Of a DNA stretch of 64,000 nucleotides, positions 6,650-11,430 are shown piece after piece. The DNA is taken from assembly GCF_030384885.1 (NCBI RefSeq), contig NZ_CP128613.1; one strand, 5' to 3'. The position numbers and the translations under genes are program-made. The DNA is from Escherichia coli. Lineage in GTDB: Bacteria > Pseudomonadota > Gammaproteobacteria > Enterobacterales > Enterobacteriaceae. How positions within the stretch are numbered: the stretch's first letter is position 1; each line of letters begins with the position of its first letter. The notes below the pieces were generated by a model. That model worked only from the letters and a program-made list of their open reading frames with translations, had not been told where the DNA came from and made no database searches.

Positions 6650-6879
6650 AGGACGTTACGCCATTTTGAGGACATGAACGCGGCGCATTATCAGTGACTT
6701 TCGCGGCGCGGGCAAAGTGAAATATAGACTTTTTTTGATTTGCCTCCTGTATAGATTGCACTCAAAAAATAATTATCTTATATAATTCAGGCAAATACTT
6801 CCTTTTAGTAATATTGATGCTGGTGCGACCACTGAGGAATCTTTACAATTCACGCCCGTTTTTTTTAGAGGAGCGCAAC

Positions 6880-8082
6880 GTGGAAAGGTTTGATGCCATT
6901 ATTATAGGCGCTGGTGCGGCGGGTATGTTCTGTTCTGCGCTGGCAGGTCAGGCAGGACGCCGGGTTCTGCTGATCGATAATGGTAAAAAACCAGGGCGCA
7001 AAATCCTCATGTCTGGCGGTGGGCGCTGCAACTTTACCAACCTTTATGTCGAACCGGGCGCTTATCTGAGCCAGAATCCGCATTTTTGTAAGTCTGCACT
7101 CGCGCGTTTTACCCAGTGGGATTTCATTGATCTGGTCAATAAACACGGCATTGCCTGGCACGAGAAAACGTTAGGGCAACTCTTCTGTGATGACTCCGCG
7201 CAGCAGATTGTCGACATGCTGGTGGCTGAGTGCGAGAAGGGCAATGTGACCTTCAGATTGCGAAGCGAAGTGCTGAGTGTGGCGAAGGATGAAACAGGCT
7301 TCACGCTTGAACTGAATGGCATGACCGTCGGTAGCGAAAAACTGGTCATCGCGACCGGTGGGCTGTCAATGCCGGGGCTGGGGGCATCGCCGTTTGGTTA
7401 TAAGATTGCCGAACAATTTGGCCTCAACGTGCTGCCGACCCGCGCGGGTCTGGTGCCATTCACTTTGCATAAACCGTTGCTCGAGGAGTTACAGGTGCTG
7501 GCGGGTGTGGCGGTACCTTCCGTGATTACGGCTGAAAACGGCACCGTTTTCCGTGAGAACTTACTCTTCACCCATCGCGGCTTGTCTGGACCGGCAGTGT
7601 TGCAGATTTCCAGCTACTGGCAACCGGGTGAATTTGTCAGCATTAATCTGCTACCGGATGTGGACCTCGAAACCTTCCTGAATGAACAGCGTAACGCACA
7701 TCCGAATCAGAGCCTGAAAAACACACTGGCGGTTCATCTACCGAAGCGGTTGGTTGAACGCTTACAACAACTCGGGCAAATCCCGGATGTCTCGCTAAAA
7801 CAGCTCAACGTACGTGACCAACAGGCACTGATTAGCACATTGACCGACTGGCGTGTGCAGCCGAACGGCACTGAAGGCTATCGCACTGCCGAAGTGACGC
7901 TCGGCGGCGTGGATACCAACGAACTCTCTTCACGGACGATGGAAGCGCGCAAAGTGCCTGGGCTGTATTTCATCGGCGAAGTGATGGACGTCACCGGCTG
8001 GCTGGGGGGCTATAACTTCCAGTGGGCGTGGTCGAGTGCGTGGGCTTGTGCGCAGGATTTGATTGCTGTGAAGTCGTCCTGA
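6880..8082 (+). CDS. yhiN: putative FAD-dependent oxidoreductase (HI0933-like flavoprotein)
   Basis: GTG at 6880 preceded by AGAGGAG gives 400 aa; FDAIIIGAGAAG dinucleotide-binding motif. Confidence 0.85.
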   Translation: MERFDAIIIGAGAAGMFCSALAGQAGRRVLLIDNGKKPGRKILMSGGGRCNFTNLYVEPGAYLSQNPHFCKSALARFTQWDFIDLVNKHGIAWHEKTLGQLFCDDSAQQIVDMLVAECEKGNVTFRLRSEVLSVAKDETGFTLELNGMTVGSEKLVIATGGLSMPGLGASPFGYKIAEQFGLNVLPTRAGLVPFTLHKPLLEELQVLAGVAVPSVITAENGTVFRENLLFTHRGLSGPAVLQISSYWQPGEFVSINLLPDVDLETFLNEQRNAHPNQSLKNTLAVHLPKRLVERLQQLGQIPDVSLKQLNVRDQQALISTLTDWRVQPNGTEGYRTAEVTLGGVDTNELSSRTMEARKVPGLYFIGEVMDVTGWLGGYNFQWAWSSAWACAQDLIAVKSS

Positions 8083-8388
8083 CCTATTACCTAAAGATGA
8101 AAATTATTAGAGCCGCATTAAAAATGAGCTAATTTTGATAGTGGCTATCTTGTGATTATTTTCTAATAAGCCCGTGAACTGAAACCCTCCATGCTTAAAA
8201 TAAGGTGGGGGAATGGTGATTAAAAATCGACCGAAGTCCAGATCTTTATAAAATATGAACAGGTTGAAAAAAGACAGTAACTTTACTGTTTTTTATACTT
8301 AACCATCAATGTTAAGTTATTTCATGATACCTAAGAAAAACCAGCGTTACGCAATTGGTCGACGCTGGTTTTATCCGGTACGTTGCAA

Positions 8389-9441
8389 TTATTTTTTAGC
8401 AGAACCTGCTTCTAATATTGAAACGATTGAGAACAACGTAAAGCATACCGCTCCCAAACCGACAAGAACCCGCGAAGGAATAAAATATCCCATGTCGGTC
8501 TGCGCCATTTCCGCAAGAAACGATGCCAGGAAAAGGCAAAACAGGCAGGTGAAGACGGGAATCATCGGAATTCTGTTGGCTAACGAACAGGTACGTCTCC
8601 AGACCAGTGCCAGTAGCCAGACTTTTGAGAATATGCTGTAACAGATCATTCCAAGGCAAATGAGAATAATGCCGGGAGCCAGCCGAGCGCTTGCATCGGA
8701 ACTGACTAAGACGTATATGCCCTGCAGCACCGTGATTGAGCCGAGAAAAATAACCCAATAACACCAAAGCCAGTGCTCTTTGGATGAGAACGTATTACGT
8801 GTTTGATGGACGATTGTGGCTACAAGGCCAATGAGACAGGCACAGATTGCGGTTAACCCAAGCAATACGTGACCGGCGACATAATGTGGGGTTATGTCGG
8901 CACTGCGTAACAGCGTTATCGACCAAATGAAACCGAGCAGGGTGAGTAATACGGGAACGGCAATGAGGCAATTACCGATTAATGAAGAATAAGCCTGTGC
9001 CGGTGTTCCGTCGCTTTTGCTCCCCGATGCATTTTTGGGAATGAGCAGAAAGTGACCGGATGACGCTGCCACTGTCGATACACAGGCGGCAATCATACCA
9101 ACGCCGAAAATCACATGACCGGCGACAAACTCGTCTGCCATCACATCATTGCCTGCTAACAGTGCCCAACCCCATATCATGGTGATAATTGACCCCGCAT
9201 AGCCAATAATGGGGAACAGTGTATTGTAAAACGTATTAACGCCGCGCGTGAGCTGCGAAATGATAATAAATGCGGTAGTGAATAATGCCAGGCATATGGC
9301 TGCCAGAGAAATCAGCACATGACCCGCGACGAAATACTCGCTTTGCCCTGAACTTTCCAGCACAAAGCCACCTAACGCGATACAAATTAACCCCATAATC
9401 AAGGGGATTAATTTGAAAAGCCACCCGATATATATGTTCAC
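8389..9441 (-). CDS. yhiM: inner membrane protein YhiM
   Basis: GTG start at 9441 preceded by GAGGAG gives 350 aa; polytopic, with three internal xVAGHV repeats. Confidence 0.8.
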   Translation of the reverse strand: MNIYIGWLFKLIPLIMGLICIALGGFVLESSGQSEYFVAGHVLISLAAICLALFTTAFIIISQLTRGVNTFYNTLFPIIGYAGSIITMIWGWALLAGNDVMADEFVAGHVIFGVGMIAACVSTVAASSGHFLLIPKNASGSKSDGTPAQAYSSLIGNCLIAVPVLLTLLGFIWSITLLRSADITPHYVAGHVLLGLTAICACLIGLVATIVHQTRNTFSSKEHWLWCYWVIFLGSITVLQGIYVLVSSDASARLAPGIILICLGMICYSIFSKVWLLALVWRRTCSLANRIPMIPVFTCLFCLFLASFLAEMAQTDMGYFIPSRVLVGLGAVCFTLFSIVSILEAGSAKK

Positions 9442-9822
9442 TTTAAACTCCTCAGGTATCCCTGCTAATATCGAAATGTGCATTAATGATAATTTCAGCC
9501 TGTTAATAAAATGACGAGATATCATTAAAGACAAATGCATAGCATAACTATAGCTGGGTTTACTTTGCCGAGTGCCACTTTTCAGCGTTCAAAAGGCCAT
9601 GGTAAATAAATATTTATCCTAAGATTAATTCTTATTCTGTAGTTCTTTACAATTATCTTCCAGGGAGGGATTATTTTTCATTATTGGTAAAAGACCGGAT
9701 AGTCTCGGCGTTTAAAATCAGCGAACATATAATTATTATTGTTTTATATCGTCGTAAATATGTCTTTCAGACATGTATCGTTTATTTTGTAACAAACAAT
9801 TCAAAAATATCATAGGTTATTT

Positions 9823-11430
9823 ATGAAAGCAATTCATAATCTGATTGGAAACAACTCCTTAAGCCATGAATATAAGCATTCAGATAAAGTTAACAATCAT
9901 CAACACCATGGCAAGGTTGATAAAAAACATCTTTCAAAGACAGTTGAAGTTAATATACTGGATAAATTTTCGCAAATAGGTAACAATGCAGGCCTGCATA
10001 TCATCTATTTCCTGCAATATGGTCACTGGAATGTAAATGACTATTTTCATCAGACGGTGAAAACATCGCTTTACAATAGTGAACCTTCTATAGATATCCA
10101 AGAATATAATAGTTTCGCCAACATGGATACTGACACGTTTATCTTTACAATTATACCAGACAATAACCATGTGTTAAAATTATCATCTCCCATAACCGTT
10201 ACGATTGAGCGTAGGGATGGTTATTATTTTATTAATTTCTCCGGAGATAAATCAGATATAATTTATAAAGTTGATGGGCTTTCTATCATATCCGAAAATT
10301 TCTTTACTCTTCTTAGCGGTAATTTTAAACCTGACTGGCGTTGGGATGTCTCTACTGAGAACCTCACTAAGGAAAAGTTTGATAACTATGTTAAATCTGT
10401 GTTCTCAGAAATAGATTTTTATAAACACTGTGGTGTGATTAACCCACAAAATATGAACACGGCTTATTTTGGCGATACAGATGGAAGAGTAGGCGCTATA
10501 CTTTATGCATTGCTCGTTTCAGGGCATATAGGCATCCGGGAAGAGGGGGGGAGTTTAATATGTGAATTATTAAATCACGAAAATATGGCTTCATCTGCAT
10601 ACGAAAAGAAAAAAATGGGAGAGCTCTACGCTTTATTAAATGCAAGAGACATGATCTTGAATGAGTTGCATAATCATGTTTTTTTAAAAGGCGATGCGAT
10701 TACTCCTTGTATTTTCCTTGGAGATCATACAGGCGACAGGTTTAGTACTATTTTTGGAGATCAATATATCCTTACTTTGCTAAATTCTATGCAAAATATG
10801 GAGGGTAATAAAGATAGTCGTATAAATAAAAATGTCGTCGTTCTGGCTGGAAATCATGAAATCAATTTTAATGGTAACTATAGTGCACGACTAGCAAATC
10901 ATAGACTCTCCGCCGGTGATACATATAACTTAATTAAAACGCTTGATGTTTGTAATTATGACCCAGAAAGGAAAGTTTTAACCAGTCATCACGGAATAAT
11001 AAGAAATGAAGAAAGTAAATGTTATTGTCTCGGTGCTTTGCAGGTTCCATTTAAACAGATGAAAAATCCTACTGATCCTGAGGAATTAGCTAATATATTT
11101 AATAAAAAACATAAAGAACATATGGATGATCCTCTATTCCATCTAATCCGAAGCAATATTATGAAACCCACTGCTTTATATACTGATTATTTTAATAACA
11201 CTACTGATTTCAGACCAGCACGTAATCATATCTTCATATGTGGAGAGAAACTCAAATGTGAAGACCCCAGCAAATACATTAGACAAAAATATGGCCATCA
11301 TGGGCTCGGGGTAGATCAGAATCAACAATTTGATAATGGTATTATGGGTCTAAATTCCCGGAAGGAAGTACGTGATAAAAATAATAAAATAATTTATTCA
11401 TCAGGGCTTAGTTGTTTTCAATCTCATTAA
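9823..11430 (+). CDS. yhiL: DUF4049-type protein, paralog of YhiJ (yhiL/yhiK position), intact 535 aa
   Basis: AT-rich ORF sharing motif blocks with the next ORF: YFGDTDGxVGA, FLGDxTGDRFS, VLAGNHE. Confidence 0.7.
   Translation: MKAIHNLIGNNSLSHEYKHSDKVNNHQHHGKVDKKHLSKTVEVNILDKFSQIGNNAGLHIIYFLQYGHWNVNDYFHQTVKTSLYNSEPSIDIQEYNSFANMDTDTFIFTIIPDNNHVLKLSSPITVTIERRDGYYFINFSGDKSDIIYKVDGLSIISENFFTLLSGNFKPDWRWDVSTENLTKEKFDNYVKSVFSEIDFYKHCGVINPQNMNTAYFGDTDGRVGAILYALLVSGHIGIREEGGSLICELLNHENMASSAYEKKKMGELYALLNARDMILNELHNHVFLKGDAITPCIFLGDHTGDRFSTIFGDQYILTLLNSMQNMEGNKDSRINKNVVVLAGNHEINFNGNYSARLANHRLSAGDTYNLIKTLDVCNYDPERKVLTSHHGIIRNEESKCYCLGALQVPFKQMKNPTDPEELANIFNKKHKEHMDDPLFHLIRSNIMKPTALYTDYFNNTTDFRPARNHIFICGEKLKCEDPSKYIRQKYGHHGLGVDQNQQFDNGIMGLNSRKEVRDKNNKIIYSSGLSCFQSH

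Follow-up and report, generated by a model that had tools for sequence, protein, structure and literature searches.

The stretch of Escherichia coli DNA considered here (64,000 nucleotides of contig NZ_CP128613.1, assembly GCF_030384885.1; hereafter the window) carries on its minus strand the gene yhiM, which encodes an inner-membrane protein of 350 amino acids (aa) from the DUF2776 family. Judged from its sequence, YhiM is almost certainly made of five tandem homologous helical hairpins. The explanation that we consider best overall, five hairpins closing into a barrel that may enclose a pore with a functional ring of aligned residues, has in our estimate about an even chance of being correct. 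The gene, its five repeat units with their transmembrane helices (TM) and the motif copies that they contain are listed below.

8389..9441, minus strand: yhiM coding sequence, intact, with GTG start, 350 codons and TAA stop, analysed in translation
9238..9441, minus strand: unit 1, aa 1-68, with TM1 (aa 3-29), a periplasmic loop and TM2 (aa 34-65)
9313-9333, minus strand: motif FVAGHVL of unit 1, aa 37-43, ring residue H41
9022..9237, minus strand: unit 2, aa 69-140, with TM3 (aa 70-95) and TM4 (aa 102-130)
9109-9129, minus strand: motif FVAGHVI of unit 2, aa 105-111, ring residue H109
8776..9021, minus strand: unit 3, aa 141-222, with TM5 (aa 153-179) and TM6 (aa 184-214), preceded by the longest cytoplasmic loop
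8863-8883, minus strand: motif YVAGHVL of unit 3, aa 187-193, ring residue H191
8596..8775, minus strand: unit 4, aa 223-282, ...RLAPGIILICLGMICYSIF, with TM7 (aa 220-247) and TM8 (aa 251-279)
8662-8682, minus strand: motif LAPGIIL of unit 4, aa 254-260, ring residue I258 (Cys in about half of the family)
8392..8595, minus strand: unit 5, aa 283-350, ...YFIPSRVLVGLGAVCFTLF, with TM9 (aa 293-312) and TM10 (aa 317-347)
8464-8484, minus strand: motif FIPSRVL of unit 5, aa 320-326, ring residue R324

YhiM is a full-length member of its family. The Pfam profile PF10951 (DUF2776) spans the whole protein (E = 7.8e-159; 529 bits, the cutoff being 26.1), positions 1-347 of the 348 in the profile being covered, and each of the five units, taken alone, matches its own segment of that profile. 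NCBIfam holds no model matching YhiM. The gene is annotated as yhiM / DUF2776 in the near-identical genomes of RefSeq.

A preliminary description of this gene had reported three copies of the motif [FY]VAGHV[LI], together with a degenerate fourth copy near the C-terminus, and had proposed the internal duplication of a helix-pair unit. The gene stands in the frame and at the coordinates then given. The motif occurs in YhiM exactly three times (aa 37-43, 105-111 and 187-193) and corresponds at the DNA level to an 18-nucleotide repeat family at 9316-9333, 9112-9129 and 8866-8883. The exact pentamer VAGHV is likewise present three times, and a pentamer of any kind recurring at least three times was encountered in just 8 of 20,000 composition-preserving shuffles. 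The motif is, however, the beginning of the second helix in a helix-loop-helix unit of about 60-80 aa, of which YhiM contains five copies and not three. The degenerate copy near the C-terminus is real and corresponds to unit 5; unit 4 (aa 223-282) had been overlooked.

The relatedness of the units was assessed by two methods after cutting YhiM at its cytoplasmic loops (aa 1-68, 69-140, 141-222, 223-282 and 283-350). Single-sequence comparison by Smith-Waterman alignment with BLOSUM62, scored against hydropathy-preserving shuffles in blocks of 7 residues, placed 7 of the 10 unit pairs above the shuffles. The z values were 7.4 for units 1 and 3, 8.9 for units 1 and 4, 8.9 for units 1 and 5, 6.8 for units 2 and 3, 5.2 for units 4 and 5, 4.8 for units 1 and 2, and 4.2 for units 3 and 5. 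Unit 1 resembles units 4 and 5 (Smith-Waterman scores of 77 and 83) no less than it resembles unit 3. The pairs 2-4, 2-5 and 3-4 reached no significance in this comparison.

Profiles of the units were also derived from a family alignment of 73 sequences and compared by hhalign. All 10 pairs align, with probabilities of 80-99% and E values from 1e-5 to 2e-18; unit 4 matches each of the others at 94-97% and unit 5 at 80-98%. In the controls, columns read in reverse gave probabilities of at most 1.8%, and block-shuffled profiles never scored as high as the real pairs. With the His position of the motif taken as offset 0, no gap is needed to align the five units across some 45 residues, roughly offsets -25 to +23. 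Their second helices share the pattern (A/P)(-2) G(-1) H(0) V L x G(+4) L G/x A I C(+9) x S/A L; common to the first helices are a Pro near the cytoplasmic end and a Gly at -17.

Since the pairs outscore both the reversed and the shuffled controls, the repeat is real, five-fold and no artefact of transmembrane composition. The duplication of a helix-pair unit proposed at the outset is in this way borne out by single-sequence and profile comparison alike, as well as by the ten regularly spaced helices of an AlphaFold2 model. That the repeats are non-homologous and the motif a product of compositional bias and generic transmembrane-hairpin hydrophobicity is hardly credible: transmembrane segments are low in complexity, HH-suite is liable to false positives between membrane proteins and three pairs lack significance on the single sequence, but block shuffles leave z values of 4-9 for 7 of the 10 pairs, the profile pairs exceed every control and the gap-free alignment is in register with the helix starts of an independent structure prediction. 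There is strong support for an internal duplication that produced the units ahead of the diversification of the family. Homologues from several proteobacterial classes and from Actinobacteria, at 50-60% identity, share the five units and a length of about 349 aa.

The arrangement of the hairpins was approached by structure prediction. With the family alignment as input, AlphaFold2 returned a model of ten long helices with a predicted local distance difference test score (pLDDT) of 94.5 and a predicted template modelling score (pTM) of 0.94. The even helices of the model begin at aa 34, 102, 184, 251 and 317, each exactly 7 residues before the ring position. Each ring residue being the 8th of its inner helix, all five would share one depth, some two helical turns below the periplasmic ends. 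The assigned cytoplasmic segments carry 10 Lys or Arg residues, against 2 on the periplasmic segments, a distribution that supports an N-in/C-in orientation with the hairpin tips in the periplasm. The same orientation has been predicted for YhiM elsewhere (PMC6604978). In its length, its ten helices and the predicted cytoplasmic location of both termini, YhiM conforms to what is expected of a DUF2776 protein.

Conservation in turn distinguishes the two helices of a hairpin. Within each unit the even helix shows stronger conservation than its odd partner, with a lower entropy. TM1, TM3, TM5 and TM7 show a significant conservation moment (p <= 0.002), that is, one variable face, and the even helices are uniformly conserved. 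On these grounds the even helices would be the inner ones and the odd helices the outer ones. The His face of the even helices (offsets 0, +4, +7, +11, +14 and +18) is small and polar, rich in Gly, Ser, Ala, Cys and Thr; the opposite face (+2, +5, +9, +12 and +16) reads Leu/Leu/Cys/Leu/Val. We infer that it is the small polar face which borders the axis, the bulky face packing on the outer ring. Foldseek, which returned no natural structure at E <= 1e-3, placed only designed single-chain parallel alpha-helical barrels near significance. Designers of such proteins have described the AlphaFold model of YhiM as 'based on five central helices' and as the natural model most like designed parallel barrels (Albanese et al. 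2024, PMC11288890). Taken together, a closed two-layer barrel with the even helices inside is probable.

The residues found at offset 0 of the five units in E. coli YhiM are H41, H109, H191, I258 and R324. Across the 73-sequence alignment, the corresponding positions hold His in 79%, 89% and 86% of sequences, Cys in 51% at the fourth, where E. coli has Ile, and Arg in 85% or His in 10% at the fifth. The complete ring H-H-H-C-R is found in 76 of 132 full-length homologues (58%) and H-H-H-I-R in 10 of the 132; all three His are kept by 100 of them and at least one by 131. The conserved Gly-His pair of the preliminary description thus holds better for its first member, Gly being present in 95-99% of sequences in four units, than for the second, with His at 79-89% in three units and Cys or Ile and Arg in its place in units 4 and 5. 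The further suggestion that Gly-His could line a channel or a metal site is plausible in view of the His face, the common depth of the ring and a published copper phenotype.

Cysteines form a second conserved set. Seven transmembrane Cys are at least 90% conserved in the family (aa 20, 50, 120, 200, 267, 302 and 333; window 8443-9384, minus strand). Four of the conserved Cys are in register at inner-helix offset +9, C120 standing at +11, and by helical periodicity the +9 cysteines would occupy the face opposite the His.

At the fourth ring position the E. coli-type protein has Ile258 followed by Cys262, and most of the family has Cys258 and Gly262 (window 8656-8670, minus strand). The thiol of the E. 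coli pair lies one helical turn deeper, on the same face as position 258. Compensation of the lost Cys258 by Cys262 was considered and set aside: the pair I258/C262 occurs only in E. coli-like sequences and, being confined to that lineage, represents a single event that provides no evidence for compensation.

These features suggest the following working model. Each hairpin would consist of an outer helix, a periplasmic loop of 3-6 residues and an inner helix, with the N- and C-termini of the protein in the cytoplasm, and the five hairpins would close into a two-layer, pseudo-five-fold barrel. TM2, TM4, TM6, TM8 and TM10 would then form a parallel inner ring of five helices surrounded by the odd helices as a lipid-facing outer ring, and the motif (A/P)-G-(H)-V-L-x-G-L-x-A-I-C would be the periplasmic N-terminal half of the inner helices. 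The ring would stand first in a stripe of residues that are small or carry a hydroxyl (Gly/Ser, Ala/Met, Ala/Cys/Ser/Thr, Thr/Ser) that may line a narrow axial lumen. YhiM could thereby be a channel or facilitator that works as a monomer on small cationic solutes, copper entry and GABA (gamma-aminobutyrate) efflux being the published phenotypes, and the His3-(Cys)-Arg ring could serve as a periplasmic selectivity, metal-binding or protonation-sensitive constriction. Taken by itself, the claim that the protein conducts through a pore and that the ring is the functional site of this pore is tentative and falls somewhat short of an even chance.

The phenotypes in question were reported in two studies. 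Stationary phase at pH 5.5 and anaerobiosis induce yhiM, with partial dependence on GadE and GadX (PMC6604978). In a mutant, GABA export at pH 5 is lowered by about 50%, and export increases when yhiM is overexpressed (PMC6604978). The same work found no major acid-resistance role at pH 2.5, contradicting an earlier report, and the role of YhiM in acid resistance is disputed (PMC6604978; PMC11005409). In the uropathogenic E. coli (UPEC) strain CFT073, a yhiM mutant is copper-resistant and contains less copper under copper stress, its Fe, Mn and Zn being unchanged; it also over-expresses copA and has an activated Cpx (CpxAR) response (PMC11005409). The copper phenotype is missing in K-12, which was partly ascribed to an N-terminal MXXXM present in UPEC alleles only (PMC11005409). 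A pore or metal role of the ring would fit both the copper and the GABA observations.

The start region of the allele described here bears on the MXXXM. In a common E. coli allele (database cluster P0002, 354 aa), where an upstream ATG adds four codons, the MXXXM reads MGFKM. In the window, positions 9442-9456 read ...EEFK-V(GTG) with a GAGGAG Shine-Dalgarno sequence, so that the present YhiM lacks the MXXXM, as does that of K-12.

Several observations weigh against a conducting pore with a functional ring. The direction of the ring side chains, the diameter of the lumen and the closure of the barrel are deduced from helical periodicity, conservation and fold-search matches, and TM9 lacks the conservation pattern expected of an outer helix. 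The lumen of a parallel five-helix barrel is narrow, and GABA may not fit. Divergent members have N, R, L, P, S, Q or F in place of one or two His (for example P-R-S-F-R), hence the ring is no family-wide requirement. Mutual information with average product correction (APC), computed at an effective number of sequences (Neff) of about 58 and with noisy top pairs, did not single out the ring positions; 41-191 is the sole ring pair within the top 1%. The lower copper content may be an indirect effect, given the Cpx activation and the higher copA expression, and the phenotypes are strain-dependent and partly contradictory (PMC11005409; PMC6604978). The gene neighbourhoods of six homologues contain neither a conserved partner nor metal-related genes: their contexts comprise YceI/EamA, SDR/GSCFA, transposases, TrkH, a histidine kinase and one uninformative contig of 2 kb, and without common genes they lend no functional support. 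The sole suggestive context is that of a Clostridium perfringens homologue, which lies between homologues of gadC and gadB (PMC6604978).

The alternative that survives best, although we hold it to be rather unlikely, is that the repeat is structural only and serves tight packing and hydrogen bonding between helices near the periplasmic side of a closed, non-conducting bundle, YhiM acting as a scaffold or an envelope-stress partner that would, for instance, modulate CpxA. Gly, Ala and Cys abound in the motif, as is typical of close helix packing, its His are replaceable in divergent members, and five-helix barrels of the coiled-coil type have very small lumens. A structural role would sit well with the finding that loss of YhiM activates CpxAR and that its copper phenotype is tied to Cpx (PMC11005409). 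Burying three membrane-embedded His and an Arg at one depth would nevertheless be energetically costly, and 58% of the homologues keep exactly H-H-H-C-R. Moreover, GABA export is altered by deletion and by overexpression alike, and the nearest natural architecture, that of TehA/SLAC1, is a channel.

According to another alternative, the ring is a dedicated His3(Cys) copper or zinc centre, made up of the three His of neighbouring parallel inner helices and, in most homologues, of a Cys on TM8, and YhiM functions mainly in copper uptake or sensing, the effects on GABA and acid being secondary. The occurrence of H-H-H-C on a single helical level in 76 of the 132 homologues and the acidic character of the periplasmic loops above the ring, with 9 Asp or Glu against 2 Lys or Arg, speak for such a centre, and His3 sites in designed parallel helical bundles bind copper and zinc. 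The selectivity of the mutant phenotype, with copper content and sensitivity lowered and Fe, Mn and Zn unchanged (PMC11005409), points the same way. We regard this reading as unlikely all the same: E. coli, the very source of the copper phenotype, has Ile and not Cys at the fourth position, the conserved Arg would repel cations, K-12 shows no copper phenotype though its allele class has the same ring, and the six homologue loci contain no metal-related neighbours.

A haem-binding, cytochrome-b-like protein with the transmembrane His as haem ligands is very improbable. In its favour are the conserved intramembrane His, a raised expression of yhiM in a cytochrome bd mutant (cited in PMC6604978) and a weak, sub-threshold match of unit 3 to Pfam DUF4079 (aa 155-209, E = 1.2e-3; 19.6 bits, the cutoff being 31.4). 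This match, probably due to chance, is below the curated cutoff and limited to one unit, and the His lie in a single layer on adjacent barrel helices and not as the paired bis-His of four-helix haem bundles.

Returning to the five-hairpin barrel, its best natural structural match is TehA/SLAC1 of the TDT family (PDB 3m71, 7wnq, 8gw6, 9m7r and 9m7s), a trimeric anion channel of five hairpins with quasi-five-fold symmetry. A link in sequence between YhiM and TehA/SLAC1, or any solved structure, was sought and rejected, the PDB sequence search and Foldseek having come back empty in this respect: PF03595 (TehA/SLAC1) does not match YhiM at E <= 1, and the family profile run against PDB chain sequences at E <= 10 met three chance-level matches and no TehA/SLAC1 chain. 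The likeness also has limits in structure. The odd helices of SLAC1 form its Phe-gated pore (PMC11260165). YhiM departs from this arrangement, conservation suggesting that its inner helices are the even ones; the inner helices of the two proteins would therefore cross the membrane in opposite directions, both having cytoplasmic termini. The gating Phe of SLAC1 is without an established counterpart in YhiM and, unlike TehA/SLAC1, YhiM retains clear repeats at the sequence level.

Two other comparisons deserve mention. Designed barrels and toroids (sc-CC-6/7/8: 8qag, 8qai, 8qah; DHR81: 5cwq; dTor_9x57R: 6xr1; MC7BP34: 8u1a), the best structural matches of all, resemble YhiM in architecture only. 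They are soluble and without evolutionary link to YhiM, a natural protein of the membrane with five predicted inner helices. HdeD (DUF308), whose gene lies about 21 kb off within the acid fitness island, is likewise an inner-membrane protein with a short repeated helical hairpin. It gives a match to the Pfam DUF308 repeat and has in common with yhiM a co-regulation with the acid-resistance genes (PMC6604978). Kinship between the two was rejected: hhalign of the family profile against HdeD gave a probability of 3%, and no YhiM unit matches DUF308 at E <= 10.

On the available sequences, the YhiM family is small and tightly conserved. Among 1.8 billion representatives clustered at 50% identity, 257 clusters match YhiM, most of them being fragments. 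Within E. coli the gene has been treated in the context of the core genome (PMC11005409). It is not universal in the species: matches were found in 4250 of 5426 complete genomes, some genomes retaining only a remnant of 57 nucleotides, and the adjoining gene yhiN (6814-8082) has matches in 5422 of the 5426. The segment 6814-9600 of the window belongs to a minority E. coli lineage. The coding sequences of yhiM and yhiN are about 96% identical (95-99% band) in nucleotides to those of most complete genomes and at least 99% identical in only 6-15 genomes; when the intergenic flanks of yhiM are included, identity falls to 90-95%. The best match is strain 2013C-4282, whose 99.9%-identical locus has yhiM flanked by yhiN and two DUF4049 genes.

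The expression signals around yhiM in the window are as follows.

9448..9463, minus strand: 5' leader of yhiM, with the Shine-Dalgarno sequence GAGGAG at 9448-9453, 6 nucleotides before the GTG
A at 9463, minus strand: equivalent of the yhiM transcription start, 22 nucleotides upstream of the GTG
8334..8372, minus strand: hairpin resembling an intrinsic terminator, then UUUUUCUU, centred about 35 nucleotides past the yhiM stop

In K-12, the GTG start and a transcription start 22 nucleotides upstream of it were mapped by primer extension, the leader reading 'GAGGAG-N6-GTG' (PMC6604978). The leader elements of the present allele are putative assignments based on identity with that K-12 motif. 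The downstream hairpin folds as RNA at -22.5 kcal/mol (z = -3.25 against shuffles), has a U-run behind its strong stem and agrees with the stem-loop reported in PMC6604978. A simple terminator scan missed it, probably because of its long loop, and direct folding recovered it.

Longer versions of the gene can be drawn. An in-frame open reading frame (ORF) on the minus strand reaches an ATG at 9540 (383 aa, extending over window 9442-9540), and database cluster P0001 (364 aa) starts at another ATG upstream of the GTG. As these starts lie upstream of the K-12-equivalent transcription start at 9463, they are probably over-extended gene calls. Directly past the yhiM promoter, window 9823-11430 (plus strand) contains an ORF of 535 aa; its counterpart in the matching RefSeq genome opens a tandem pair of DUF4049 genes (yhiJ/yhiL-like), both intact there.

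The gene, its family and its predicted structure are already public, and the five central helices have been remarked upon (PMC11288890); the advance is for this reason incremental and reveals no new system. The five-fold sequence repeat, its register and the ring are apparently undescribed in the literature searched, and neither PMC6604978 nor PMC11005409, the only papers in that literature to name DUF2776, mentions internal repeats or the histidines. YhiM joins the uncommon membrane proteins whose five-fold internal duplication still shows in the sequence, in a predicted fold that protein designers have found nearly unmatched in nature (PMC11288890).

What the finding offers is a residue-level hypothesis, the H-H-H-(C/I)-R ring at a fixed depth, for a domain of unknown function with ten TMs and for an orphan stress protein associated with survival in acid, growth under high temperature and low osmolarity, export of GABA, and copper sensitivity accompanied by Cpx activation. 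A SLAC1/TehA-like architecture with inner and outer helices swapped would also raise the question of convergence versus very deep divergence. In its most specific form the idea is speculative and unlikely to be right: YhiM would be a natural monomeric 'pseudo-pentameric' channel, a parallel barrel of five helices in one chain derived from a five-fold-duplicated hairpin, with an inner-helix polarity opposite to that of SLAC1/TehA and a periplasmic His3-(Cys)-Arg selectivity filter sensitive to both protonation and copper. If true, such a channel would unify the acid, copper, GABA, temperature and osmolarity phenotypes and would imply an ancestral two-helix protein working as a homopentamer.

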